DNA of 64,000 nucleotides from an uncultured Phycisphaera sp. (GTDB lineage: Bacteria > Planctomycetota > Phycisphaerae > UBA1845): positions 35,580 to 99,579 of the forward strand of contig CAZYEX010000137.1 in assembly GCA_964646605.1 (NCBI GenBank). The letters run 5' to 3'. The position numbers and the translations under genes are program-made. This document shows, in pieces, positions 8,908-64,000 of this stretch; within the stretch, counting starts at the first letter, position 1, and each line of letters opens with the position of its first letter. The notes under the pieces were generated by a model, which saw only the letters and a list, made by a program, of their open reading frames with translations, ran no database searches and had not been told where the DNA came from.

Positions 8908-11900
8908 GTGAAACGAGCGTTTGTCATCATGGTCATCGTCCTCGGCGCCGCCATTGGCGGGGCCGCATTGTGGCACTTTTGGCCGAGGGCGGTCGCTTTC
9001 TACACCGACGCGGAGTCCATCCGCGAGCCGCTGGCGACCGCCTCGCCAAGAGACATTCTCTGGCAACCCCCCGTCGTCCTAACATCTCCGCTTAACTCGA
9101 CGGACGACGACTACGAACCTCGACTCAGCAATGACGGTTTGACGTTGTACTTTGTTCGAGGCAAGGCCGGGCACAATGCGGAGTTGTTCTTCGCTCGCCG
9201 GACACCGGACGGATGGAGCGATCCGCAACCTCAGACGGAGTTAAATTCCCCTTTCGACGACCTGGGCCCCGAACCGTCCGCCGACGGCGAGACGATGTAT
9301 TTCTACAGCAATCGCGACGGCGGACTTGGCGGGTATGACCTGTGGTTGTCGCGGCGCGGACACAATGGATGGCAGACGCCGCTTAACCTCGGCCCGGCGA
9401 TTAATTCAGAGTTCAATGACTACGGGCCCGCGATCACACCCGACGGCAGTGTGCTGTACTTTGCATCCAACCGCCCCCAACCGACGGACACCCACACTCC
9501 TGATCCCAACGCCTGGCCGGCAACGCTGCGGGAAGACCTCTTCCGCCGCACGTACGATCTTTACCGATCTTCGGTAACGCAGAGCGGTTTTACACACGCC
9601 GAGCCCCTGTCGGCATTGAACACCATTCATCACGAAGGATCGCCGGCCGTCAGTCCCTTCGGAGACTTTCTCTACTTCGCGTCCGACCGACCGGCGGGAC
9701 GCGGCGGCTTCGACATGTACCGTTGCCGCAGACTGCGAGGACAACTGGGACTGGCGGAGAATCTCGGACAGACGGTCAACACGGACGGAAATGAACTGGA
9801 TCCTGCCCTCAGCTTGGGTGGGTACCGGCTCTATTTCAGTTCGGATCGCATTGCAGCCGGCGGTGTGCCAGGCGCCTCGCGAGATTACAACCTGTACCAG
9901 ACCACCTCACGAGAGGTCTTCTCCGAGCTCGAAGTGCAGCCTCGGTCCTCGATCGACTGGGCTGCACTGTGGAAGGCGGCGGCGCCGAATCTACTGTTTG
10001 CACTCTTGGCGTTGCTCCTCTTGCTGTTGTTGCTGTGGTTGTTTCGCGGAATGCAAGGCCGCAGGTTGAGCCTATTGGCGAAGTGTGTGTTGGGGTCTCT
10101 GGCAGCCCATCTCCTTCTCATGTTGCTTTTCAACGTATGGGAAGTGGCGGCGTCGTTGGCGGGCACGCTTTCACACGGTCGGCAAGGTTCGATCCAGGTG
10201 GCCATTGCGTCGCCCGGGACCAGCGGTTCTCTTTTTAGTCAAATCCGCGAGCACCTAACGTCCGTGGACGTTGCGAATGTCTCTCCGGCGCCCGAACGCG
10301 CCCCTTCGCTGTTGCAGTCGCATGTGGAGGAGTATTCGGCGCAAATACCCGTCAACGGGACGGCCCTAGAGGCAATGCACACAATACAATCGACCACGCC
10401 GCCGTCGGATGCCACCGTCCATCATGAGCGAATGCTCCCCAGCGCAACACCGCCGATCGAGTTTCCTTTGAGCGCCACGGCATTGACCTTTCCGCACTTG
10501 CCTGTGTCGCAGGCGCAACGCGAGGCGGATGTGGCGCCGCATATCGTTCGAGAAGCGCCGACGAAACTGATTCGCGTGGCACACATCCCCTCGGACCTGC
10601 AACCTGTCTCGGTCGTCACGGAATTTGCCCCCATCCGCGCGCCGACCGATGCACTTCCCTCTGCGGTACGGAGTGTAGTCGCCGAGCCCGTGGTCGGCGA
10701 CGCGGTGATTCGACCCGAAGTGATGCGCGAGCCAATGCAGATTGCGCGGACAGCTCAGGCGGCGCCGCCGATGGCGACGCAATTGGGCGTTGAACTTGGA
10801 CTTCCGCGGGAATCGACTGTACCACCGTCTACCAGTGAAGAGCACCAGTCTCGCGCGACTGGGGCAGCTCCTGTTTCGTCGACGCGAGCCGCGATGGATA
10901 TTCCCCCCATAGCGGATACCGCAGTGCAATCGGTTCAACTCCAGCCCGGCAAGCACGGGTCCCAGGCTGCGCCTTCGTCCCTTGCCGCTTTGGAGTCCCT
11001 TGCCGGCGGTGATTCCCCGACTGCTGCGCCATGGCCCGCTGGTTTCGCACTTAGCGCCGCAGGATGGATTCCGGCCCCGGCGGCATCGTCCTTCACGCCA
11101 AATCTCGAAACGCAGAGCGCGCTCCCTCACGCGGAGGGGGAGCGCCCGCCGTTCGGGGAAAACACTGCTTCGCCCCGCGCTCAGATGTTCACCGATCGCG
11201 GACCGGCCGGAAGGTTCTCCGATTTTCGGGAACGCGTTTCACCTCAGAGAAGCGACAATGTACTAGGCGTCGCGGGAAGTCTCGCGCCGTCCGTGCGGGC
11301 TCTAGACCTCCTTGTCTCGGGTGATCCGTCGTTACCCGATCGCGCCGTTCCGACCCCGGTGGCCGTCGCCACACACCGTGAACTTCAGTTGGCCCTTCCG
11401 GCGGAAGAGAGTGCCCCGGAAAATCCGTATGTGCAGCGAAACTCCGAGGCGCGGATGGACATTGTGGAGCGCATGGGAGGCAGTGCCGAAACCGAGCAGG
11501 CCGTCACCACAGCCCTTCAATGGCTCGCCTCTCATCAAAGCCGCGACGGACGATGGGACGCCGACGGGTTTGACCGCGGCTGCGGCGCGTGCGGCGGCGT
11601 CACATCCGTCGCAGCCGATCACGCCCTGACGGGCCTGAGTCTGCTATGTTTTCTGGGTGCCGGGCATACACACCAAAAAGACGGGCCCTATCGTGACGCG
11701 GTGCAACGCGCTCTGACCTGGCTCCTTTCTCAGCAGCGGCGCGACGGCGATCTTCGCGGTGAGGAAACCATGTACAGTCACGGCATTGCGACTCTCGCAC
11801 TATCCGAGGCCTATGGTATGACCGGCGACTTCAGAGTACGCGACGCCGTGCAGAGAGCCGCGGACTTCATTGACCAGGCACGCAACCAGACGGTAGGCGG

Positions 11901-15628: not shown

Positions 15629-15856
15629 AAACCCCTCGGCATCCATGTATCGTCTTGCGTCGCCACGCCCACCCGAACCCGCAGCGCATGCGGCAGGCCC
15701 TTCATGAATGGTCCTACAGTTCGTGGAACTCGTCAAGCCGAACGGCTGGGCAAGCCCCCATCCCCACGTCGAGGACCAGAAATGAGCGACCCTCGTTCCT
15801 CACGCCGCGTGGGCGTACGAAACGAGGGTCGTTTCTCTCGGGGGTCGGGCGACGAT

Positions 15857-23391: not shown

Positions 23392-23486
23392 GCCGCGTCA
23401 AGGAAATTTGTTCTCAAGCCCGGAGCGACGACTGAAGCACTCAGCCGTCCCTCCGGGACTCGGTGGGAACGCATTCACCCCCCCAG

Positions 23487-23619
23487 CCATAAAGGGCCTG
23501 TCGATTTAATCGAAATCGAGCGCCGGAAACGGCATGATCGATGGTCAATACCATGGTTTTCATTCTTGACAACCGTTTCGTGAAGGTGCAACGGGACTAA
23601 ATCGACAGGCCCTAAATGG
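23487..23619. repeat. Long inverted repeat (22-bp arms, 2 mismatches, 89-nt spacer); hairpin or MITE-like element immediately 5' of the group II intron
   Basis: ccataaagggcctgtcgattta ... taaatcgacaggccctaaatgg. Confidence 0.5.
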
Positions 23620-23622
23620 CTA

Positions 23623-24399
23623 GTGCGCCTGAAAGTGTACTTGACTTGTGGGGTGGAAGCCCCCATCGGGCATACGCTCTCCGGCCCGTAATCGAAGGTA
23701 ACGGCGTCGCCGCGAGGCGAGGTCGAGAGCAACCGGAGGTGAACCCTCGGTCCGTAGGATGATCCTTGACACGCTGCCGACGCTACGCGTTGCGGTGCAG
23801 GGCACCGGCGGGCGTAGCCCGCGCAGCGAGTCAAGGACGATTCGGCCGGGCGTGTTGGCGAGTCTGCTGGCCAATGACGAAGCCCAGACCTTTGCGAACG
23901 AGCAAAGGAAGCCTCGTACGCTGAGGGGTAGCGCGATAAAGCGATGCGAGGACGCGCCGGGTGGTTGGCGACGGAACGAGGGGAAGGTCGAGTACATGAA
24001 TCAGGGAGACCTGGCCGTCACGTGAGACGGCCAGGAGTCAGAGCGGCCATAGTAGCGAAGCAGCGGGGTAACGCCCGTGGAGCGAAGGGCCGTAGGAAGG
24101 CGGATTCGTGAAGGGCACCCCGCGGGAAGGGACACCGGCGACAGTGAACTCCGAGAGGAGTTCTAAACAAGCCGGAGACATTCGCGTCCGATGGGCGTGG
24201 GTGGAACCCGCGGTCGCGGGGCCGATCATCAACGCCGGCCGAACGTTTACTTCGCTACGGCAGGCCTCTTCACGATGGTGGAGGCCTATCGCCAGGCGCG
24301 TCAGTCTGTGGCAGTCCACTGACCGGAGAGCCGGATGCGGGAGATCCGCACGTCCGGTTCCGAGGGAGGAGGGACGCACTGCGTCCTTCCTACCCCTAT
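23623..24399 (+). mobile_element. ORF-less bacterial group II intron (ribozyme domains I-VI, no intron-encoded protein), about 777 nt
   Basis: 5' GTGCGCCTGAAAGTGTACTTGACTTG resembles group II 5' ends (GUGYG). Internal AGTAGCGAAGCAGCGGGGTAACGCCCGTGGAGCGAAGGGCCGTAG is recalled as matching a conserved domain II-III block of bacterial group II introns. Domain V GAGCCGGATGCGGGAGATCCGCACGTCCGGTTC with AGC triad at 24328-24360. Domain VI hairpin with bulged A at about 24392, 7 nt from the proposed 3' end. Domain IV is too short (<300 nt) for an RT/maturase. Confidence 0.7.
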
Positions 24400-24589
24400 T
24401 TTTCAGTGTGTCCCGCCGGGACACCGTCACGCACGACCGCCAAAATGTGGGTAACAGCAAGGCTCTACGGCCTGTCAGCGGAGATGGGCATGAACTACGC
24501 CGCGCCCGCCTATAAACACCCGCGCCAGGACGCGAGACGGTGTTCCATCGATCCGGTATGGACCCGCTCCCAGAGGGGAGAGGGTGGTC

Positions 24590-24713
24590 CCGGCGATGAT
24601 TGACGACCAGGTGATCCACGGCACCTGAACGACCCAGGTGGGCTGCTCTGTCTCCAGCCTGACCCGTTGCCTAGCTCATCCACTGCATGGGACCTGGTCG
24701 TCAATCATCGCCG
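24590..24713. repeat. Perfect 22-bp inverted repeat separated by 80 nt (second hairpin/MITE-like element)
   Basis: ccggcgatgattgacgaccagg ... cctggtcgtcaatcatcgccgg. Confidence 0.5.
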
Positions 24714-24976
24714 GCTGTGTCCGCAACCGCCGCACCTGCACGGCAACCAAGGAATCCTACCACGAAGCGCCGTGATCGGACAACTTGCCGGAGAATCCAC
24801 TTTGTCCGCTCGAAACGCAGGGTTCTTCCCAAGGTCCATCCGGCGACCGGCACACGCCGAGGGTTTCAGTCTCCGCGCCCCAGCGCCGACGGTCTGCTCG
24901 GATCACGCGTGTCTGCGGGCTTGCGCCAGCGGATCGGATGCGCAACGCCAACGCCCAGGCGGAGTGAGATGTACTA

Positions 24977-35207: not shown

Positions 35208-35828
35208 CGGATGCTCCTTTTCGATTTTCCTAGGCAGTGGGGAAGGGCGCGCGCCTACCTACACCGGCCGGACGCGGACTTCCCCGGTATTACTTATTGA
35301 TTCAACGGCTCATGCGCCGACCAAGGCCTCATGGACGGTCATAAATTTCCATGCCGTCCGTCGGATGAATGGTCCGCACGTCTCTTCTGATGCCTCATGA
35401 TTCTCCCTCCGTGAGCACATGCGTGCTTGCCTGCCCGAATGGCCGTCATGGCCACCCGACGTGAAGACGCCATCCTACTCTTTGGCCGCTGGGATGTCAA
35501 ATGATCCGAAAAACCAGCAGTCGAACCGGCTTCCCCTCCTCCATCGGGTTTGATCGGTCGCGCCCGGACATTCCATCGGGGGGGACCGGGGGACAGCCAC
35601 CTATTTTTTTCGCCCGATCGCTGCGAAGCTGTTCGTGTAGAGAGAAACGGCGCATTCTCTCGGGCGGCGAATCGTCTCGTTTCCTCGCTCCGTTGATCCC
35701 TGCCTCCCCGCAGCCTCCACTCGGCAATCGATCCGCCGAAGGCCGAACCAACAATCCCCTTGGTGCCTCCATGCCTTTTCTTCATGCCTTTCCCCCTGTC
35801 CCTAATCCCAAGTCCCTCGTAACGCGTC

Positions 35829-35862
35829 ACTGGTAACTGGTAATTGGTAATTGGTCATTGCT
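35829..35862. repeat. Heptamer tandem repeat (AAYTGGT)x4
   Basis: cactggt aactggt aattggt aattggt cattgc. Confidence 0.5.
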
Positions 35863-36925
35863 TTCACCCCTCCCTTCCCCATTCCCTGTGATCGCTCCAT
35901 CACGCGTTCCCCGCCGATCACCCCGCAAGTTATCTTGGTAGAGAAAGGCCGCCGCGCCCCGCACGCGCCCAGCGGCGCACCGGAAAGGAAACGACGTGCG
36001 AAAAAGCGCCCCTACCAAACGAACCGGATTGGAAATGCCGCAATCGGTTGCGGCCAGAGGATCTACGTCAAAATGTCGTGCGCAAGACAAACCCGATTCG
36101 AACCCGATCAGGCACGCCCTGTCGCTCACCCTCGGCTGCGCGGCTTCGTGGCCCCGCGGCGGAGCATGCCCCCGCCGCGCCTATCGCCCTCGCCCCTTCC
36201 GTTTCGGCGTTTCTGCTTTCTGCGTTTCTACGTTTCCTCCGTCCCTTCGTGCCTACTCGGAAAAAAGCGCCCGTGCGAAACGAACCCATTTCCCCCCGCT
36301 GGCGCGGTCAAGAACGCAGGTCACTGGTCCGCAAATGGCTTCGTTTGACCCGAAAATCGGTGAAACATGGGTTCGCTGGGATCGTCGTACTGCGGCCCCA
36401 CCCCGTGGTGGCTCACGGGGAACACGCTTGGCTGCAGGACTCCCTCCACCATGATTCGGGATGGGGGCAGACCCGTGGCCATCCAAGGCCGGCTAATCCG
36501 TCAGGGACCCGCGGGGTTCCGCAGGACGTGGAGCCCTTGCCCGCTCGCCCAGGCAGGGTTAGCATTCGTGCCGGATTTCACGAAGTCATGCCGCGTTGGG
36601 TCGGCGGAGGAGTCGGTTGACGCAGTTTTCGGTGCCATGGCAGGCGGTGCGGCCCGTTCGATACGGGCTGATCGCACGAATGGTGATCGCCGCCGCCCGC
36701 GGGGTCTATCTTACCTGCGGACCCGTCATCGCCCGGTTTCCTGGCGCTATTCTCATCGGGGCCACGATCACGACCTGCGTTGTCGTTTGGATCCACGCGC
36801 TGGTTTTTGCGTACGTCGATCTGCGGATTCTCGGACCTGCGGCTGCGGGTGGGGTGATTCCCGCCGAGTCGAGCTATCTTGCCCCGTCGACCTGGGGGTT
36901 ACCGCCGTCCACGATATTCTCGTTG

Positions 36926-38206: not shown

Positions 38207-38761
38207 ATGCAAAACGCAATCGCCCTGGCGCAAATCACGGACGTGGTCAACGCCGCCCCGCCCGGGGGGTTCATGGAGGCGCTGTTGTTCTATTCCGTCG
38301 CCGGGGCCACGGTGGCGTCGGCGCTCGGCGTATGTATCTCCAAGAACATCGTGCGCATGGCCGTCTGGCTGTTCATGGCATTGGGTTCGGTTGCGATGGT
38401 GTACTTCCTCCTGGCCGCGAACTTCCTCGGAGCCATCCAATTGATCATCTATGCCGGCGGGACGCTCGTCTTGCTGATCTTCGGCGTGATGCTCACCAGC
38501 AAGTCACCCTGGGTACGCTATGACACTCCGAAGTTGGAGTTGGTCGGCGCCGGCGTCGTCTCTGTGGCCCTGCTGGTATGCCTCTGCACGGTGATGACCC
38601 GTACCACGTGGGCGGGTACCCTGGAAGTCGTTCCCGGCGCCTCCGTCGCCGCCTTTGGAGAGCGATTGTTGACCACCTATTTGGTTCCCTTTGAGGTGGC
38701 GGGCGTGCTTTTGATGATCGTGATGGTCGGCGCGGCTCATTTGGCGAGACAGGAAGCATGA
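38207..38761 (+). CDS. nuoJ: NADH-quinone oxidoreductase subunit J (NuoJ/ND6)
   Basis: 184 aa, five TM helices, ND6-like. Confidence 0.8.
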   Translation: MQNAIALAQITDVVNAAPPGGFMEALLFYSVAGATVASALGVCISKNIVRMAVWLFMALGSVAMVYFLLAANFLGAIQLIIYAGGTLVLLIFGVMLTSKSPWVRYDTPKLELVGAGVVSVALLVCLCTVMTRTTWAGTLEVVPGASVAAFGERLLTTYLVPFEVAGVLLMIVMVGAAHLARQEA

Positions 38762-38845
38762 AGTTCAAAATTCAAAGTTCAAAGTTCAAAATGGGACGCG
38801 AGGACGTTCTTCGAACTTCGAACTTCGAACTTCGAACTTAGGTGT
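38759..38845 (+). repeat. Heptamer-based inverted repeat element in the nuoJ-nuoK spacer, beginning with ATG and paralogous to the 5' end of the pseudopilin gene at 58496-59560
   Basis: atg aagttca aaattca aagttca aagttca ... cgaactt cgaactt cgaactt. In this stretch the ORF-track coordinates and the displayed numbering appear to differ by 7 nt, so coordinates are given to within 7 nt. Confidence 0.5.
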
Positions 38846-55590: not shown

Positions 55591-55620
55591 ACGGCAAAAC
55601 GCAGAAACGTAGAAACAGAG

Positions 55621-57011: not shown

Positions 57012-58499
57012 CTACGACGGCGGCGAAATGCTGAGCGTGCGGACTTCAATGGCGACCACGGGCGACGGGCCGTCGAAGAGCACGGTGTCGGATCCCAGCG
57101 TGCGGTCCACCGGCGGGGGGAAAACCCACACGGAACGGAGAAGCTCCTCCGGATCGGGAGGGTTGTTCCAATCGGAGTCCGTACACTCCTCACAATGTGG
57201 ATCTCCCTCTGAAATGTCGATGTCTTCCTGTACGATTTCGCGGTCCAGCGTGAGCACGGCCTTTTCGCCGTTGGCGTCAACGATGCGGCGCCTCGTGACA
57301 CGGTAGATGTGCCCCTCAAGTTCATCCACGAACGTGGTCCCCGAAGGGAACATCGAAACCAGCATCGCCGCCGGTTTGCCTGCGATCGTGTCAGGAGGGA
57401 CCCGGATTTCCGACGGGACGTGGGTCGGGCGTTTTGGTGAGTCGTCCGGGGCGCTGCGATACGCGAGCGAACTAGGAAGCTCAACCTGGACCCGCCAGGC
57501 GACGGGTAGCAACACGTCATTGTCGCCATTGAGGGCCGCCGGCGACACGGGGACTGCGGGGCGTTCGAACTTGTACGGATCGGGAACGAGCTGGTCGTTC
57601 TGGCGGGCGTAGCGGTGCGTGCTCTGCGTGCGCCGCAACGTGACGTAATACAGGTCAAAGTTTCGCGTCGAGCCGATGGCGGCGGCAGCTTCGACCACCA
57701 ATTCGAGCGATTGTTCCGGAGTGATCGCGGGGGGCGTTCGCGGACGGGCGGGTCCCGCCGGTTGGCGAAGGCGATGCAGCGCTGCCCAAAAGAACTTTCG
57801 GTTGGACAGAAGGTCTCGCCAGCGGTCGTCCAACGGCGGGTAGCTGCGATCGGCCACGTTCACCTGCGGGAAGTAGAACGAGGCTTGTTGCCTGAAGCGA
57901 TCGCTCAAATTCACATCCTTTTCGGGGTCGTCACACGGAGGGTAGGCGGGATCCAGAAGATTGGTGACCTGCTCGAGTCGCCAAGGGTCCTCGGCAACAG
58001 TCTGGCCGTTGCTCAACCGCACGTTCCACATGTTTAATGCATGGACGCGGGTATCGCTGTAAAGGAGGATGCTGCAGAACGCATCCTCCGGTTTGTTCTC
58101 GCTGATGAACTCCTTGGCGAGTTGACGATCATAGAACAAATCCCCGGCGAGACTCCCGGAGTGGATCGCGGGTTCTTCGAATGGCGGACCGTCGCTCGGG
58201 TCCTTGATGGCCACCATACGGACGCCCGCCGGGCGCAGCAGGGCCTCGAGCGTGGCCCGGGCGGCGGCGGTGGTGGATTGCTCGATGGTGTGTTCGCTGA
58301 GGGTCCGGGCCCGATCCCAGGCTACGGGGAACATCGTGGCGACCATGATCAATCCCAGACCCAGAATCACGATGGCGATCATCATCTCGACAAGGGAAAA
58401 GGCACGACCATCAGAGCACCAGGCGCAAGCCTGGTGACACTGCGGAGGCGTGTCCGCGGGCTCGCGCCCGCGGCTCTGATGTGCTATACGCTGCTTCAT
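57012..58499 (-). CDS. Prepilin-type N-terminal cleavage/methylation-domain protein (pseudopilin-like), long leader
   Basis: DGRAFSLVEMMIAIVILGLGLIMVA class-III signal/N-methylation motif after a 31-aa leader; 495 aa. Confidence 0.7.
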   Translation of the reverse strand: MKQRIAHQSRGREPADTPPQCHQACAWCSDGRAFSLVEMMIAIVILGLGLIMVATMFPVAWDRARTLSEHTIEQSTTAAARATLEALLRPAGVRMVAIKDPSDGPPFEEPAIHSGSLAGDLFYDRQLAKEFISENKPEDAFCSILLYSDTRVHALNMWNVRLSNGQTVAEDPWRLEQVTNLLDPAYPPCDDPEKDVNLSDRFRQQASFYFPQVNVADRSYPPLDDRWRDLLSNRKFFWAALHRLRQPAGPARPRTPPAITPEQSLELVVEAAAAIGSTRNFDLYYVTLRRTQSTHRYARQNDQLVPDPYKFERPAVPVSPAALNGDNDVLLPVAWRVQVELPSSLAYRSAPDDSPKRPTHVPSEIRVPPDTIAGKPAAMLVSMFPSGTTFVDELEGHIYRVTRRRIVDANGEKAVLTLDREIVQEDIDISEGDPHCEECTDSDWNNPPDPEELLRSVWVFPPPVDRTLGSDTVLFDGPSPVVAIEVRTLSISPPS

Positions 58500-59560
58500 G
58501 GCGTTGTTTTCGCCACCGTTTCGCCGATCGGTCCGCGGATGACGACCCCGCTGATGCGATGCACGTAGAACGGCTGGGCCGAGTCGATCAGGAACTTCCG
58601 TTTCTGGCCCGGGTCCCCCGCGGCCGCAAACAAGGATTCGTCGTACACCAACAGTCCGTCAACCGAGGGGAAGTTCAGGGCCGTCCCCTCGCTCTCCGCC
58701 ACCAAGTCGACGTCCTCGATGCTCTTGTCGGGGTTGATCGGAAGCTCGCCCTTGCTGTTGTCCTGCCGGTAGTATTTCTTGATATCGTCGCGGACCTCCA
58801 ACCCCGTTAGGTCGCCGCCGCGGTTCTCCGCAGCGTCGGCGTCCAGGTCGCGGATGAGCACGTCGCGGCGCACGATCAGTTCGCCCGTCGCGGAATACAT
58901 CACGGTGAAGAAGTTGCGATGCCGCTGGGCCTGATCGGTGTCGGCGTTGGCCGGGGAGAAAAGGTCGCTATGGGCGAGTTCATCGGGATCGAAGCGCCGC
59001 GTCTTGTCGGGTTCCGTCTTTTCATCGTAGACCGCGTAGCGCGGCACGACGCGCATGGGAGCGGGAAGCGAGTAGCTGCGCTCGGGCACCACGTTGAACA
59101 CGTTTGCCCACGCCTCCCGGGTGCCTGGATCGTCGTCCAGCGTGACCTGCTCTATGGCCATGATGCGCTGCACGCCTTCGCCGTCCAGAAAAAAGAACAA
59201 ACCGCTTTCGTTCCCCACCAGCAGCGTCCGTTTGTTACCCGCGCTATCGGTGATGAACAGCGGTTCCCTTTGCGCTTCGCCCGACTGCAAGGCCCGGGCC
59301 CGCGCCGTCATGAATACGCCGCTGATCGTGTTTTGGGCTTCGGCGATGCGCCGATCGCGCCACATGGTGCTGGCCGCCGGAACCACCATCGTGAGCAGGG
59401 CGACGACGATGGCGACGACGATGACCATCTCGACGAGCGTAAAGGCCGAAGTTCGAAGTCCGAAGTTCGAAGTTCGAAGACCGCATCCGCCATTCACGGA
59501 CTCAACGGCGCCTCGCCCTTTTCCGAACTTTGAACTTTGAACTTTGAACTTCATGTTCAC
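58496..59560 (-). CDS. Prepilin-type N-terminal-domain protein (pseudopilin-like)
   Basis: SAFTLVEMVIVVAIVVALLTMVVPA after a 38-aa leader whose codons are heptamer repeats (KFKVQSSKF ... LRTSNFGLRTS). GTG start. Confidence 0.75.
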   Translation of the reverse strand: MNMKFKVQSSKFGKGRGAVESVNGGCGLRTSNFGLRTSAFTLVEMVIVVAIVVALLTMVVPAASTMWRDRRIAEAQNTISGVFMTARARALQSGEAQREPLFITDSAGNKRTLLVGNESGLFFFLDGEGVQRIMAIEQVTLDDDPGTREAWANVFNVVPERSYSLPAPMRVVPRYAVYDEKTEPDKTRRFDPDELAHSDLFSPANADTDQAQRHRNFFTVMYSATGELIVRRDVLIRDLDADAAENRGGDLTGLEVRDDIKKYYRQDNSKGELPINPDKSIEDVDLVAESEGTALNFPSVDGLLVYDESLFAAAGDPGQKRKFLIDSAQPFYVHRISGVVIRGPIGETVAKTTP

Positions 59561-60603
59561 TCGATCCCCTTGGCCAGTTTCTCGCGCAATTCGGGTTTGG
59601 CGTAGACGTTGTCGTAGTTGAGCGGGTTGTCGATCACGCCGTGAAGCGTCTCGTCCTCGAAGTCACCCACCAGCGAGGCCGTGCCCTTGTCGCCCATGAT
59701 GTCCTTGGTGAGTTGGTCCGCTCCGTTGGGGCCGTAGGAGAATAGCACCGGCACGCCCCCGTTGAGACGAATCAACTCCGTGGACGCCTCGTTCCAGTCC
59801 TCGTGATTGCTCGAGGGGATCTCGACATCCTCCTTCCAGTCGCGCTGGGCGAGGTAACTCAACGGGATGCCCCAGTCGTCGACGATGAAACGGACTTCAG
59901 AGTCGAACTCGCTATCCCATTCGGTATTGATGGTTGCGTCGCCGGGGTCAGGCCGAGAAAGGAAAATCGCCGGCTTGTCACCGTCGAGGGGTGCGGACGT
60001 CCGATTGCGGTCGGGAATGCGATCCAAGATTGCCGAACCGGATTCGCTCAGCGTCTCAATGGCCAATATCATCGCAAGCAAATCGCGGTGCTCGACGCGG
60101 TCCTTGGCTAGGTCCGCGCCGTCCTTGAAATATCGCATGGCTTCCCAAGGCGGATTGGCGTCGGTGGCAATGATCTGCGCTTTTCCCGGGGCGAGTGACC
60201 GGCTGACGTTTGCCGGCCCAGTACTTCCGGGCAGCCCTCCGGGCGTGAACACTTCCAACTCATCCGGGGGATAGGCGCCGTAACGATCCGAGTAGCTGAT
60301 CGTGTTCTTGGCAAGGTCGCCCTCGCCGGGCTTCTTGGGTTGTCGGGCTGAACTGATGGTCGGTCTGCCGCTCTGATCGCGTTTGAACTGCTCCAACGCC
60401 TCGCTGACCACGGTCAGGACGGACCGGGTGTTGTTGGTTCGACTCTTGTTAATCAACCCGGCGCTGGCGACCAGGATGGCGCTGACCAGAATGCCGATCA
60501 CGATGATGACGATGAGCATTTCGACGAGGGTGAGAGCGCGGCTGCGGCAAGACTGAAGTGAGAAGTGAGAAGACTGAAAACCAAGAAACGGGCGGGCGGA
60601 CAT
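59557..60603 (-). CDS. Prepilin-type N-terminal-domain protein (pseudopilin-like)
   Basis: SRALTLVEMLIVIIVIGILVSAILVA; 5' UTR is seven tandem GAAGANN heptamers. Confidence 0.75.
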   Translation of the reverse strand: MSARPFLGFQSSHFSLQSCRSRALTLVEMLIVIIVIGILVSAILVASAGLINKSRTNNTRSVLTVVSEALEQFKRDQSGRPTISSARQPKKPGEGDLAKNTISYSDRYGAYPPDELEVFTPGGLPGSTGPANVSRSLAPGKAQIIATDANPPWEAMRYFKDGADLAKDRVEHRDLLAMILAIETLSESGSAILDRIPDRNRTSAPLDGDKPAIFLSRPDPGDATINTEWDSEFDSEVRFIVDDWGIPLSYLAQRDWKEDVEIPSSNHEDWNEASTELIRLNGGVPVLFSYGPNGADQLTKDIMGDKGTASLVGDFEDETLHGVIDNPLNYDNVYAKPELREKLAKGIE

Positions 60604-60652
60604 CTTCTTCTCTCTTCTAACTTCAGTCTTCCGTCTTCGATCTTCAGTCTTC

Positions 60653-61738
60653 CTATTCCGTTTTCCGCGTCCAATTCGTCACGTCGTCGGCCGTGCCGTA
60701 GCGGGCGTCGGGACCGGCGCTGACCAGCAGGTAGGAGTCCTTCTGCACCGGCGTGGGCCTCGCTTTGACCGACGTATCGAGGATGAATCGGAAGAACGAA
60801 TGATCGTACTGCGTGTCCGTCAAGATCGTCTGGGGGTTGTAGTTCTGAACCGGCGGGTCGGGGACCTTGGCGACGGCGATGTTGTGGTAACACTTACCCC
60901 CGTTGCAAGTTCCTTCCGTGCCCTGCCCGAAGTCCAGACCATCATCGTTCTGTATTTGGCTGTCGCTACCCGTGATCACCCCGTTGTCCTCTTGCCAGAA
61001 AATCCCCGGCTCGCCCGATTTGCCGACCATCTTGATTCCCGCCGGACTGGCGCGGTAGTAAAGGATGGGATGGTCCCAGGGGTCGAGGAACACGCGCTCC
61101 CCGATAGCAGGGTCCGCACCTGCGGGCAACTTGAGGAGCTTTCCGCGATTGAAGAGGTCCTCGAACGACGCCGCGGCTTCCTTCATCTTTTCATCGACGT
61201 ATCCGCCGCCGCCGTAGCGCGGGAACTTCTCTTTGCCCTTGTCGTCGATCGCGTAGATGCCGGATTTCTTGGGATCCGCGTCGAATTTCTTGTGCGTGTC
61301 GTCAGACCAGAGTCCCTTGGAATCGCGGTTGATGTCGCGAAAGCCCGGCGTGCCCAGTCCGTCCGCTCCGATCATGGCATGCACGAGCAAATGGGCCCCG
61401 GCGATACGGACCTTCGTATTTGCATCTTCACCTTGTGGGTTAGCGATCTTCTGGCGGTCGGTCGGAGGATCCGTGTCATCCCCAGCAGATGGAGGAAGCG
61501 CTCCGCCCAGCGCCGCCTCGGCCCGGAAGGTCTGCAACCCGGTGTCCAAAGCCCGGAACTGGGCATTGGCTTGCGCGTATTTGGCTTTCTCCCGCACGGT
61601 CGAAAAGGCGGGCAGGAGCGCTGCGAGAAGAAGAGCGATGATGGCGATCACCACCAGCATTTCCACCAAGGTGAAGGCCCTCCAATGGTCGTATTGCCGG
61701 CTCGCTCTCATGTCGTTCGTCCTTTGTTTAGGCATCAA
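60653..61738 (-). CDS. Prepilin-type N-terminal-domain protein (Planctomycete DUF1559-like pseudopilin)
   Basis: WRAFTLVEMLVVIAIIALLLAALLPAFSTVREKA. Confidence 0.75.
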   Translation of the reverse strand: MMPKQRTNDMRASRQYDHWRAFTLVEMLVVIAIIALLLAALLPAFSTVREKAKYAQANAQFRALDTGLQTFRAEAALGGALPPSAGDDTDPPTDRQKIANPQGEDANTKVRIAGAHLLVHAMIGADGLGTPGFRDINRDSKGLWSDDTHKKFDADPKKSGIYAIDDKGKEKFPRYGGGGYVDEKMKEAAASFEDLFNRGKLLKLPAGADPAIGERVFLDPWDHPILYYRASPAGIKMVGKSGEPGIFWQEDNGVITGSDSQIQNDDGLDFGQGTEGTCNGGKCYHNIAVAKVPDPPVQNYNPQTILTDTQYDHSFFRFILDTSVKARPTPVQKDSYLLVSAGPDARYGTADDVTNWTRKTE

Positions 61739-62844
61739 TCCTGGGGCCAGGGCGGGAGATTGGAAGGATCGTCAGCGGTGCCGAATCGGCCGTCCACCCC
61801 GGCGCTGATGAGCAGGTAGGTATCCGAATTCACCGGTCGCAGCGGCACGTTCTCGGCGCGCTGGGTGGCGAGACCTGCGAACAGTTTCCGATCAATCACG
61901 TGGCGGGCGAAGGTCTCACGGTTGGCGTCGGCCACGATCTCGATACGGGTGAACCTAGCCCCGGAGCGGGCGATGGGGTGGGGACGTGCGGCGTTGCCGA
62001 AGTCCCACCCCGCCTCCTCCTCCGTCCCTGTGAACCCGACGTTATCCTCGTGAAAATAAAACGGCGGCCCCTCTTGCTGGATGCCACCGGTGTACTCATT
62101 CGTCAGCTCATGCTTGTCGCCGACCATATTCGTGGGTCGGCCATGCGTATTCGCCGCGTAGTAGAGAATCGGCTGATCAAATGCATCCACGATCACGGGA
62201 AGTTCTTGCATTCCGCGGAGGTTGTTGTTGTCCGTCCAACCGGGGAAAAGAGTCATGTTCGGACGGCCCGGAAGCTGCCTTGTTTTTCGTGTCGGGGTCC
62301 CGTTGGGATCAAGGTAAAGCTGCGTCCCTCGATCGGTAATCGCCTTCCCCGGTCCCAGGGCGTTCGCGGTATACCATTTGAACGGTTCCTTCCGGATGTC
62401 ATCGACATTGGGGACCAAGCTGCGCTTGATGTAGCCCAATTGGTCCACGCCCATGAGCATCGCGGGAAGCCAATGGGCGCCGTAAACAACCGGATTGGCG
62501 GGCAGGAACGGAAACTGACCGAGCTCGGGTTGGAAGCTGAAATCCTTATGGATCGGCGGATGCGAGAACGACGGAGGATACCCGTTGGTTTGCGGGAACT
62601 CGGAGCCGTTGTCCTGCTTGAACATCTCCAGGCCGACCTTCACCGACTCGATCGTTTTGAGGGTGGTCAGTTTCTTCGCCGCATTGCGGGCACTGCCCAG
62701 CGACGGAATCAGGATTCCGATGAGCAGCGAGATGATGAAAATCACAGTGAGCAGCTCGACGAGCGAGAAGCCTCGCCGGCGCCGGGCTCGAGCCTCGCCT
62801 CGCGGCGGGCGGGCATCTCGGTTCTGTCCTGCGCGGGGGTGCAT
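61735..62844 (-). CDS. Prepilin-type N-terminal-domain protein (Planctomycete DUF1559-like pseudopilin)
   Basis: RRGFSLVELLTVIFIISLLIGILIPSLGSARNAAKK. Confidence 0.75.
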   Translation of the reverse strand: MHPRAGQNRDARPPRGEARARRRRGFSLVELLTVIFIISLLIGILIPSLGSARNAAKKLTTLKTIESVKVGLEMFKQDNGSEFPQTNGYPPSFSHPPIHKDFSFQPELGQFPFLPANPVVYGAHWLPAMLMGVDQLGYIKRSLVPNVDDIRKEPFKWYTANALGPGKAITDRGTQLYLDPNGTPTRKTRQLPGRPNMTLFPGWTDNNNLRGMQELPVIVDAFDQPILYYAANTHGRPTNMVGDKHELTNEYTGGIQQEGPPFYFHEDNVGFTGTEEEAGWDFGNAARPHPIARSGARFTRIEIVADANRETFARHVIDRKLFAGLATQRAENVPLRPVNSDTYLLISAGVDGRFGTADDPSNLPPWPQD

Positions 62845-62868: not shown

Positions 62869-64000
62869 TTAGCCCTGCGAAACCGATTGAATCAACTGCA
62901 CCAGGGGCATGAACAAGGCGATGACAATGAACCCCACCATGCCGCCCAGCACCACGACCATGATCGGTTCGAGCAGGGACACCAAGCTGGCTACCGTGAC
63001 GTCGACCTCTTCCTCGTACGTATCCGCGACCTTGAGGAGCATCTTGTCCAGCTCACCGGTTTCCTCGCCGACGTCGATCATGTTGGTCACCAGCCCGTCG
63101 ACGACGTTGGCCGCCCGAAGCGGCGCCGCGAAACTCTCGCCCTCGCGGATGGAATCATGCACCTTTTCCATGGCCCGGGCGTAGACCTCGTTGCCCGCCG
63201 TCTCCTTGGTGATCTTCAGGGCTTCGAGGATCGGCACGCCGGCGCTGATGAGCGTACCGAGGGTTCGACCGAAACGGGCCACGGAGGTCTTCTGCACCAA
63301 GGTCCCCAAAACAGGTATCTTCAAAGCCACGAAGTCCACTACGTATCGCCCGCCCTGCGAAGAGCGGACCAGCTTAAACAAGGCGATCGCCGCCACGGGG
63401 CCGAAGAGAATCATCATCCATCCAGGCAGCGGCCTGCCGTTGACCACCCATTCCGACGTGCCCAGAAGCACGAGCGTCACGCCGGGCAAGGTCACGTCGA
63501 AGTCGGCGAAGATTTCCTTGAACTTCGGAATGACGAAGATCATGATGCCCACCACGATTCCCCCGGCAAAGGTGATCACGACGGCGGGATAGATCATGGC
63601 CCCGATGATCTTCCTCTTGAGCTTCTCGGCTTTCTCCATGAACTCGGCAAGGCGTTGCAAAATGACGTCGAGCACGCCGCCCGTCTCGCCTGCGGCCACC
63701 ATGTTGACATACAGGCGGTTGAAGGCTTTGGGATGCTTGCCGCACGCCTCGGAGAGCGTCGAACCGCCCTCGATTTCCTCGCCAACGGCGCGCAGAATGT
63801 TCTTGAGCGTTCCCGGTTTCTGCTGCTCGGCCAGGATGTGCAGGCTGCGAAGGATCGGCAGACCGGCGTCTTGCAGGGTGGACAACTGGCGGGTGATCTG
63901 CGTGATGTTCTTGGTCTTGACCCGTCCAAAGCCGAACGACCGGCCCTTCTTCTTTTTCCCGGTCGCGGCTTTGGCCTTGGCGCCGCCTTTTTCGCGGATG
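62869..64000 (-). CDS. gspF: Type II secretion / type IV pilus platform protein GspF/PilC family, 5'-truncated by window end
   Basis: Two GspF repeats (ILRSLHILAEQQKPGTLKNILRAV...; PILEALKITKETAGNEVYARAM...), three TM. Reading frame stays open to 64000 (upstream residues ...KKKGRSFGFGRVKTKNITQITRQL). Confidence 0.85.
   Translation of the reverse strand, partial: IREKGGAKAKAATGKKKKGRSFGFGRVKTKNITQITRQLSTLQDAGLPILRSLHILAEQQKPGTLKNILRAVGEEIEGGSTLSEACGKHPKAFNRLYVNMVAAGETGGVLDVILQRLAEFMEKAEKLKRKIIGAMIYPAVVITFAGGIVVGIMIFVIPKFKEIFADFDVTLPGVTLVLLGTSEWVVNGRPLPGWMMILFGPVAAIALFKLVRSSQGGRYVVDFVALKIPVLGTLVQKTSVARFGRTLGTLISAGVPILEALKITKETAGNEVYARAMEKVHDSIREGESFAAPLRAANVVDGLVTNMIDVGEETGELDKMLLKVADTYEEEVDVTVASLVSLLEPIMVVVLGGMVGFIVIALFMPLVQLIQSVSQG

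Follow-up and report, generated by a model that had tools for sequence, protein, structure and literature searches.

Heptamer-repeat hairpins in the translated leaders of pseudopilin genes from a Planctomycetota lineage

Repeat hairpins at two pseudopilin genes

We analysed a 64,000-nucleotide (nt) stretch of DNA from an uncultured Phycisphaera sp. (GenBank assembly GCA_964646605.1, contig CAZYEX010000137.1, positions 35,580 to 99,579 of the forward strand), referred to here as the window. Its minus strand encodes a GspF/PilC gene and then five genes with prepilin-type N-termini (pseudopilin genes 1 to 5). The subject of this report is a pair of heptamer-repeat hairpins at the 5' ends of the third of these (gene B, 59557..60603) and the fourth (gene A, 58496..59560). 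The original prediction that inverted heptamer repeats lie at both genes was upheld by Tandem Repeats Finder (TRF), a period scan and shuffled controls, and RNA folding recovered a long imperfect hairpin at each.

Gene A opens within the stop codon of gene B. Its GTG (59560-59558) overlaps the TGA at 59559-59557 as GTGA, and an ATG (59554-59552) follows two codons later (start region 59552..59560; all coordinates of these two genes refer to the minus strand). The 5' arm of the hairpin, located by TRF and in the sequence, occupies 59524..59551 and consists of three AAGTTCA units and one AAGTTCG, read as KFKVQSSKF (TRF at 59525-59551: period 7, 3.9 copies, 100% matches). Within the 44-nt loop (59480..59523) are a GTG in the reading frame (59497-59495) and some degenerate GAATGGC/GGATGCG units. 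The 3' arm (59446..59479), found in the same way, has 4.7 units of CGAACTT type, in CTTCGAA phase, read as LRTSNFGLRTS (TRF at 59447-59479: period 7, 4.7 copies, 92% matches); this array runs into the Ala codon at position -1 (59446-59444), just before F-T-L-V-E-M. The stem carries an A.C mismatch at each seventh position. It folds at -58.9 kcal/mol (z -3.6; 0 of 200 shuffles as stable), and both start codons are predicted to lie inside the stem base, with pairing probabilities of 0.94-0.99 and of 0.7-0.8 for the next 17 nt.

At gene B, the 49-nt spacer from the stop of gene 2 to the ATG consists entirely of seven heptamers (GAAGACT GAAGATC GAAGACG GAAGACT GAAGTTA GAAGAGA GAAGAAG), which form the 5' arm (60604..60652) and abut the TAG of gene 2 (60655-60653). 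The array is evident in the sequence and was also recovered by TRF (period 7/21), by pattern enrichment and as inverted repeats I4 and I7. Seven GAAGANN heptamers had been predicted in this 5' untranslated region (UTR); the number is correct and six units fit that form, but the fifth is GAAGTTA, so that the pattern common to all is GAAGNNN. The 3' arm (60549..60578) is TTCAGTCTTCTCACTTCTCACTTCAGTCTT, read as FQSSHFSLQS within the leader MSARPFLGFQSSHFSLQSCRSRA that precedes LTLVEML, and is 80-92% complementary to the spacer heptamers. The CAGTCTT/CTCACTT units attributed to this side are present but begin only about 26 nt into the coding sequence. Perfect pairing across the gene B start, also claimed, was not recovered: the exact 11-mer CTTCAGTCTTC is absent, and both candidate sites reach 10 of 11 positions, one of them adding a G.U pair. 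The hairpin folds at -47.9 kcal/mol (z -2.3; 4 of 200 shuffles as stable) with 3-nt internal loops, and the minimum free energy structure leaves the ATG (60601..60603) unpaired in the apical loop (predicted pairing probability 0.02-0.14). The proposal that the two genes share one layout around the translation start is not supported by the comparison of this exposed ATG with the buried starts of gene A in the predicted structures.

Chance and low complexity were ruled out as the origin of the arrays by shuffled controls and by the exclusivity of period 7. There are 9 matches to AAGTTCAAAGTTCAAAGTTC with up to three mismatches (0.00 expected in shuffles) and 13 to the pattern of three GAAGNNN units plus GAAG (0.04 expected), and in our own period scan, under one common criterion, 7 was the sole period among 4 to 15 that yielded arrays in the window. 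TRF copy numbers of the window arrays are 3.9, 4.7, 4.6, 4.1 and 4.4, in keeping with the definition of a heptanucleotide simple sequence repeat (SSR) as at least three tandem units. Two of the four array sites in the window are at pseudopilin genes.

Translated leaders and avoidance of stop codons

All five pseudopilins have a class III (prepilin) signal peptide, with a cleavage/methylation motif in which the predicted cut falls before [FL][TS]LVE[ML] and which leads into a hydrophobic helix with Glu5. Such a leader is short, hydrophilic, 6-26 amino acids (aa) long and ends in Gly, and prepilin peptidase cuts it off on the cytoplasmic face (PMC4471445). The leaders considered here depart from that description. 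Ala replaces the canonical Gly at -1 in four of the five window proteins and in 49 of 89 gene A orthologues, and the +1 residue of gene B and its orthologues is Leu, not Phe. Lengths above 26 aa are found in gene A (39 aa), gene 5 (33 aa) and 36 of the 89 orthologues. The expectation of unusually long, repetitive prepilin leaders was borne out, with 39 and 23 aa in genes A and B and up to 131 aa in orthologues.

Of 44 pseudopilin junctions measured, 18 have their earliest in-frame start codon overlapping or adjoining the stop of the preceding gene (15 as NTGA, 3 with a one-base overlap such as TGATG), and the frame is open from the first start to the cleavage motif over 15-131 codons. As read from the sequence, the arrays are translated into leaders with a 7-residue periodicity, as a translated heptamer array must give in whatever frame it is read. 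Orthologues contain other periodic leaders of this kind (IRHSTFD, NRQSAIG, IANCQLP, HSAFSIQ), and a lag-7 signal is present in 22 of 89 leaders, vs 1-9 at other lags. In-frame leaders of 48-110 aa are present where gene callers missed them, and about one quarter of the listed orthologues are called from the Met inside FTLVEM. We considered whether orthologues starting at the Met of VEMVIVV are frameshifted OFF alleles and rejected this: their DNA either is the same as that of alleles called in full or can be read in frame from an ATG further upstream, and the differences are those of gene calling. In the syntenic locus L121, the called start of gene 4 is an ATG that lies 5' of both arms and shares bases with the preceding stop codon, and reading by eye, with no script, found no further in-frame start codon (ATG, GTG or TTG) from one arm to the other.

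The choice of repeat unit points to avoidance of stop codons. The perfect complement of AAGTTCA is TGAACTT, three or more copies of which place a TGA in each reading frame. TGAACTT is the unit found in non-coding hairpins of other phyla, whereas the leader 3' arm uses CGAACTT (Arg) at the cost of one A.C mismatch per unit. Among [C/T]GAACTT units, the in-frame NGA codons have C in five cases and T in none, and the out-of-frame ones have C in five and T in four. In L121 gene 3 the four units begin C, T, T and C, and the two C units are those with an in-frame NGA codon. The TGA-containing units of L233 lie in the UTR, upstream of the start.

Positional enrichment in syntenic loci

Eight syntenic Planctomycetota loci were fetched, including the near-identical pair L122/L123; with the pair counted once, seven loci and the window make up 183 kb. 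The eight loci encode pseudopilin genes 1-5 in one order, preceded by GspE-PilT-GspE-GspF where the flank extends that far. Of 29 arrays that pass a strict period-7 criterion, 25 are found in the 250 nt preceding a prepilin cleavage motif, where 5.7% of the sequence is located (binomial p 1.7e-27, for loci picked around the pseudopilin cluster and with both arms of one hairpin counted separately), and 18 of 41 prepilin motifs carry an array. Predicted structure is also enriched there: z falls below -3 in 40% of 160-nt windows ending at the motif, vs 1.3% elsewhere in the loci (Mann-Whitney p 2.8e-10). The array units vary by genome (AAGTTCA, CAATCGA, GAATGGC, CATTCAG, GATTGCC), and one unit family tends to recur within a genome, as in L121 genes 2, 3 and 4 and L122 genes 1 and 3. 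Outside the lineage, among loci selected for their arrays, an array lies just upstream of 3 of 4 prepilin motifs in one set and of 3 of 7 in another, vs about 8% expected (p 0.002 and 0.012; the counts are small). The matches include two genes of the Verrucomicrobia metagenome-assembled genome (MAG) L021 and one of the Pyrinomonadaceae MAG L092, and there are hints of the same concentration at prepilin leaders in Verrucomicrobiota and Acidobacteriota.

Other repeat features were seen in these loci. Gene 4 of L125 is flanked by reverse-complementary arrays about 925 nt apart, (CAATCGA)5 in its own leader (10006-10042) and (TCGATTG)5 in the gene 5 leader (10967-11003), which could permit long-range RNA pairing or DNA inversion. 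Orthologous leaders also hold nested, widespread palindromic elements, read as TLRFAQGD, RGLKPAA/AAGFSPRG and PLPSRGEG/TLSLEGRGR (L121 10050-10130; L126 5700-5980; L128 5860-5990; leaders of P0005, P0020, P0105 and P0117). In L121 gene 4 such a palindromic element is inserted in the loop of the AAGTTCA hairpin.

Variation in unit number

L122 (ENA) and L123 (JGI) have 0 mismatches over 21,092 nt, and their sole difference is one 7-nt GTCGAAT unit, two vs three copies, in the (GTCGAAT)n that forms the 5' arm where pseudopilin gene 1 begins. The indel shifts the called start from the stop-overlapping one to an ATG inside the array (382 vs 369 aa called), and an in-frame ATG remains. Copy-number variation, which had been put forward as a check, is seen between these two assemblies as this single unit and not in three further sets of identical or near-identical contigs. 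No sign was found of inversion, or of the recombination to which the arrays had been proposed to be prone.

Units of GAATGNN type carry an ATG, and three of them provide a start in every frame; thus slippage there changes the leader and does not kill the gene. The AAGTTCA unit is without an ATG, and a one-unit change in either arm of gene A would put ATG 59554 out of frame, leaving only the GTG in the loop (59497). The arrays agree with the definition of an SSR contingency locus in lying in a promoter or 5' coding region with a unit length not divisible by 3. No frameshifted OFF allele was found among the orthologues examined at the DNA level.

The only public contig with a gene 100% identical to gene A is the Logan contig L249 (SRR9952630), which starts exactly at TGAAGTTCA in the 5' arm. 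No copy-number difference from the window is visible in this contig, which begins inside that arm. Its starting point suggests assembly breakage at arrays.

Gene neighbourhood and other repeats in the window

The operon order is GspE-PilT-GspE-GspF and then the five pseudopilins. The GspF/PilC-type platform protein is encoded at 62869..63885 (minus strand; Pfam T2SSF 1.3e-63; TIGR02120 GspF 2.9e-102), directly upstream of the pseudopilin genes; the 5' end of this gene is uncertain and the open reading frame (ORF) may be longer. Pseudopilin gene 1 (61735..62844) encodes a GspG-like N-terminus with a leader ending in RRRG before FSLVELL (N-terminal matches to N_methyl and TIGR01710). It has no repeat hairpin, and z for its leader window is +0.6. 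Gene 2 (60653..61738), identified by profile matches and with a leader ending in HWRA before FTLVEML, is also without a repeat hairpin. Gene B matches N_methyl (6e-5) and, at its N-terminus, TIGR01710. Gene A encodes a GspH/FimT-like N-terminus, identified by NCBIfam N-terminal matches. Its 220 homologues are all from Planctomycetota where named, the best being 52-57% identical, bar one identical fragment; their mature N-termini are near-invariant and their leaders are 3 to 107 aa as called. PF07963 matches four of the five pseudopilins, and TIGR02532 scores at or above its cut-off in four, with a sub-threshold N-terminal match in the fifth.

Gene 5 (57012-58499) has a long hairpin of another kind in its leader (58409..58481, minus strand; inverted repeat I2), with the REP-like sequence CCGCGGGC-GCGA-GCCCGCGG. 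It is not built of heptamers. The fold (-68.3 kcal/mol, z -4.6, 0 of 200 shuffles as stable) is more stable than those of genes A and B.

A second AAGTTCA...CGAACTT hairpin was identified by pattern scan, sequence and fold at 38758..38841 (plus strand), between nuoJ (stop 38759-38761) and nuoK (ATG 38853). It has the arm order and the ATGAAGTTCA edge of gene A, so that two copies of this hairpin with that edge are present in 64 kb, and the earlier suggestion of a dedicated device is not supported. The nuo hairpin can also be read as an ORF of 27 codons, MKFKIQSSKFKMGREDVLRTSNFELRT, that starts with an ATG overlapping the nuoJ stop and ends in a TAG 11 nt before the nuoK ATG; this ORF resembles the gene A leader MKFKVQSSKF...LRTSNFGLRTS. 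It may be a relay ORF for coupling, or a mere by-product of stop-free arrays.

We also considered a functional antisense hairpin, in which G.U pairs would replace A.C mismatches, and rejected it: the antisense strand is steadier only for the nuo copy (-40.4 vs -28.6 kcal/mol), and the gene A antisense fold is less stable than the sense fold (-47.7 vs -49.6 kcal/mol). The simpler explanation for the fixed arm order is avoidance of stop codons. Intrinsic terminators and promoters were set aside as well, as no consensus match coincides with the hairpins, whose 3' arms are followed by GGCCTTTACG and GCCGCAGC. In a scan against Rfam 15 the hairpins matched no family at the gathering threshold and gave only sub-threshold chance matches to miRNA hairpin models.

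An unpaired, non-coding array of TGGTAAT/TGGTAAC heptamers, found by TRF and the period scan, lies at 35826..35862 (plus strand), upstream of the nuo genes. The surrounding region of about 540 nt (35830-36370, plus strand) is without a convincing ORF and holds (TGGTAAT)n, an octamer array and a direct repeat of about 30 nt (GAAAAAGCGCCC..AAACGAACC) in two copies about 260 nt apart. The octamer array, (AAACGCAG)n, is found at 36200-36236 (reverse complement) in this region, at 55597-55616 (plus strand), where it separates two ABC-permease genes, and at 5311-5338 of L121, a distant relative, between GspE and GspF. Thus, short-unit repeat families other than heptamers are also common to the lineage.

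The whole-window Rfam scan identified a group II intron domain and a signal recognition particle (SRP) RNA only, both away from the hairpins. The intron domain V/VI match is at 24326-24399 (plus strand, 54.7 bits), in a region of about 23620-24400. With GTGCG at about 23623 and no obvious reverse-transcriptase ORF, this may be an ORF-less group II intron; a 27-nt inverted repeat (23485-23621) precedes it. The bacterial small SRP RNA (24602-24699, minus strand, 53 bits) accounts for a perfect 23-nt inverted repeat at 24590-24714. Two more long imperfect palindromes, with 31-36 nt arms, 74-75% complementarity and 3-5 nt loops, lie at 15776-15842 and at 23763-23837, the latter within the putative intron region.

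Distribution and relation to known repeats

Exact scans of public genomes and metagenomes found at least 120 loci each for (AAGTTCA)3 and (CGAACTT)3. The named genome matches listed are from Acidobacteriota, Verrucomicrobiota, Bacteroidota, Cyanobacteria, Planctomycetota, candidate phyla and others, and many of the listed matches are inverted (AAGTTCA)n...(TGAACTT)n pairs in non-coding DNA. This distribution over many phyla, with few prepilin neighbours among the matches listed, rules out a pilin-specific repeat sequence. The expected association with prepilin genes holds for period-7 arrays, which are concentrated at pseudopilin 5' ends in the syntenic loci, and not for the AAGTTCA/CGAACTT sequence.

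The arrays belong to the known class of over-represented heptanucleotide SSRs (cyanobacterial short tandemly repeated repetitive (STRR) sequences and similar). Heptanucleotide repeats are the most abundant class of long SSR (LSSR) in many bacteria, and polymerase slippage has been proposed as their source, in the summaries given by two papers (PMC4679880, PMC4692102, both citing Mrazek 2007). As summarised there, this class, including STRR, shares with the present arrays tandem 7-nt units in few to many copies, frequencies above chance, many host phyla, slippage and no established function. It is described in the same summaries as mainly intergenic, whereas the arrays reported here are inverted pairs, in frame in a prepilin leader, free of stops and at one gene class. 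A non-coding location, as for LSSR/STRR, applies to the nuoJ-nuoK and 35.8-kb copies, which lie between annotated genes, but not to both gene A arms and the gene B 3' arm, which are within an ORF.

Two described heptamer systems of unproven function (PMC4679880, PMC4692102) are close in kind. The TAACTGA repeats of marine Beggiatoaceae, also known from Cyanobacteria and Bacteroidetes, form arrays immediately 5' of the start codons of many genes, with a proposed post-transcriptional or translational role; unlike the present arrays they have one unit sequence, are direct (169 direct sets vs one indirect), are untranslated and show no gene-class association (PMC4679880). The GGGAATC / GGGGAYT repeats of Xanthomonas and Nostoc include some inverted stem-loop pairs and vary in length between related strains while keeping their position, but they are intergenic, G-quadruplex-forming, untranslated and unlinked to pilin genes (PMC4692102). 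The CTCTT repeats of Neisseria opa are likewise SSRs with a unit that is not a multiple of 3 in the cleaved N-terminal signal region of a surface-structure gene, where the mature protein is unaltered by the frame shift (PMC3960869 and textbook accounts). They differ in being pentamers in many copies, with no inverted partner and with demonstrated ON/OFF switching; the arrays here often have ATGs in all frames.

Hairpins that enforce translational coupling, and intercistronic stem-loops such as repetitive extragenic palindromic (REP) sequences, bacterial interspersed mosaic elements (BIMEs) and those of the puf and pap operons mask a downstream start or stabilise upstream RNA, setting the ratios of operon subunits. 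The stems in such cases are either unique in sequence or REP palindromes, and the spacers that hold them are untranslated, in contrast to the slippage-prone heptamer stem described here, which is itself translated. Literature searches for heptamer repeats in Planctomycetes found nothing, and searches for planctomycete pseudopilin leader peptides found nothing relevant. We conclude that it is the setting that is previously undescribed: paired hairpin arrays, translated in prepilin leaders, purged of stops and concentrated there in a Planctomycetota lineage.

Possible function of the hairpins

The reading that we favour is a composite one, in which hypermutable repeat hairpins in a translated, disposable spacer probably modulate translational coupling or expression. 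We consider it somewhat better than an even bet, mostly on account of its descriptive part; the regulatory part, taken alone, is plausible but seems less likely than not.

The heptamer arrays, as inverted pairs, would allow both the transcript and single-stranded DNA to form a long, regularly mismatched hairpin. They appear to occupy the sole spacer between tightly packed pseudopilin cistrons, the leader-coding segment. As the leader would be removed by prepilin peptidase, nearly any in-frame sequence may be tolerated, and hairpin repeats that would be harmful elsewhere in the operon could persist. The hairpins would then act on the mRNA. With the stop-overlapping starts of gene A buried, a free 30S subunit would not initiate, and the stem would be opened by a ribosome that has just finished the preceding gene. 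Translational coupling is classically enforced by such an arrangement, which would fix the ratio of neighbouring pseudopilins. At gene B the hairpin would bracket the spacer from the upstream stop and show the ATG in the loop, with an effect that may be different or opposite. Slippage of units could alter stem length, leader length and the in-frame start, and may thus provide heritable, reversible tuning or switching of subunit output.

An RNA-level role is favoured because tolerance of the leader explains the persistence of the arrays but not their roughly 10-fold or greater excess over other non-coding DNA of the same loci. A broader and more speculative version, to which we give low credence, is that selection has favoured the lodging of slippage-prone heptamer hairpins in the prepilin leader segments of Planctomycetota, Verrucomicrobiota and Acidobacteriota. 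The hairpin would set how tightly each pilus subunit is coupled in translation to its neighbour, unit change would heritably reset this as a reversible rheostat or switch of filament composition in environmental bacteria, and the leader peptide would be a dispensable, in-frame vehicle for an RNA regulatory element.

Several observations weigh against the favoured reading. Two of the five pseudopilin genes in the window (genes 1 and 2) have no hairpin, the AAGTTCA/CGAACTT hairpin is also found between nuoJ and nuoK, and the array types are generic; among the matches listed, a prepilin motif then follows in 2 of 120 (AAGTTCA)3 loci and 2 of 126 (CGAACTT)3 sites. In the modelled structures the two window hairpins treat the start codon in opposite ways, and no single mechanism appears to fit all. 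Perfect stop-free pairing (AAGTTCG/CGAACTT) is possible yet unused, so that maximal stem stability is not what is kept. Unit polymorphism was absent from the three further contig sets, and L122 and L123 could stem from the same reads assembled twice, although in that case, too, the difference between the assemblies would be a sign of heterogeneity in the array. The strength of the positional enrichment must also be read with the choice of loci around the pseudopilin cluster, and the double counting of arms, in mind.

The main rival holds that the repeats are neutral passengers, slippage-born or selfish, kept only because the leader is discarded, with a hairpin that has no role in expression. 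We regard this as unlikely, though it accounts for much: leader length (3-107 aa called) and sequence are highly variable, leaders also hold unrelated palindromes (RGLKPAA/AAGFSPRG, TLRFAQGD, PLPSRGEG), some have a single array or direct, non-inverted arrays (L125 gene 4, L126 gene 4), the stem stays imperfect, and genes 1 and 2 do without it. Against it, other non-coding DNA of the same loci, with spacers of several hundred nt, holds just 4 of 29 arrays, and thus tolerance alone is insufficient to explain the concentration. Structure is, moreover, enriched at the leader position whichever element supplies it. Rather doubtful is a contingency locus in which gain or loss of units shifts the frame and switches pilus subunits on or off, as in Neisseria opa. 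The location of an SSR in the 5' coding region of surface-filament genes, a unit length not divisible by 3, the L122/L123 difference (the sole change in 21 kb, and one that alters the in-frame start) and the predicted loss of frame at ATG 59554 on a one-unit change in either gene A arm all fit this idea. It has to contend with arrays of only 3-5 units, with orthologues that are all in frame where examined at the DNA level, with no OFF allele seen, and with the many GAATGNN 5' arms whose ATG per unit lets an in-frame start outlast slippage (L122). The bacteria also appear to be free-living and environmental.

Two other readings are improbable in similar degree. One is an intercistronic mRNA stability or processing element like REP/BIME, pufBA or papBA, which would protect against 3' exonucleases or mark a cleavage site and so give uneven segment levels. 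In its favour, the hairpins of gene A, gene B and nuoJ-nuoK start at the upstream stop and take up the entire spacer, such hairpins are present between cistrons of two unrelated operons, and differing elements give a like structure; but the hairpins lack any match to an intrinsic-terminator consensus or an Rfam family, and translating ribosomes would melt a protective hairpin. The other is a dispersed mobile hairpin, similar to a miniature inverted-repeat transposable element (MITE), with its own ATGAAG edge, that inserts at stop/start junctions, its link with pilins arising by gene conversion among five paralogues sharing an FTLVEM-coding N-terminus. Gene A, nuoJ-nuoK and L121 gene 4 have the ATGAAGTTCA edge and arm order in common, L121 gene 2 and L228 have a looser ATGA(A/G)AAG edge, one unit family is found on several pseudopilin genes per genome (L121 genes 2, 3, 4; L122 genes 1, 3), and the octamer family AAACGCAG is common to other spacers of the window and L121. 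A target-site duplication was not evident by eye, however, there is no known transposase link, the loops are unconserved past a short CGAGG, and slippage with homogenisation accounts for the arrays without mobility. It is very improbable that the repetitive leader acts as a peptide, by cytoplasmic anchoring, delayed cleavage or chaperone binding. In most units every seventh residue or so is basic (LRTSNFE, IRHSPFA, NRQSTID, KFKVQSS), as would suit a positive-inside leader (PMC4471445), but there is no conservation between orthologues, length ranges from 3 to more than 100 aa, and the content is dictated by the DNA repeat.

Significance

Among long simple repeats, those with 7-nt units are the most frequent in many bacterial genomes, and they have no agreed function. 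The arrays described here have a clear positional preference and a signature of selection, being in frame and purged of stops in the leader, presumably cleaved, of pilus/pseudopilus proteins. In practice, gene callers shorten these pseudopilin genes or place their starts wrongly, and assemblies appear to break at the arrays, as in the Logan contig with gene A. Judged from sequence, leaders of 40-130 aa ending in Ala would broaden the accepted definition of a class III signal peptide. If the hairpins do tune or switch translation, an RNA control element would be shown to reside in a disposable signal peptide, and evolvability resembling phase variation would reach beyond host-adapted pathogens to free-living soil and sediment bacteria.

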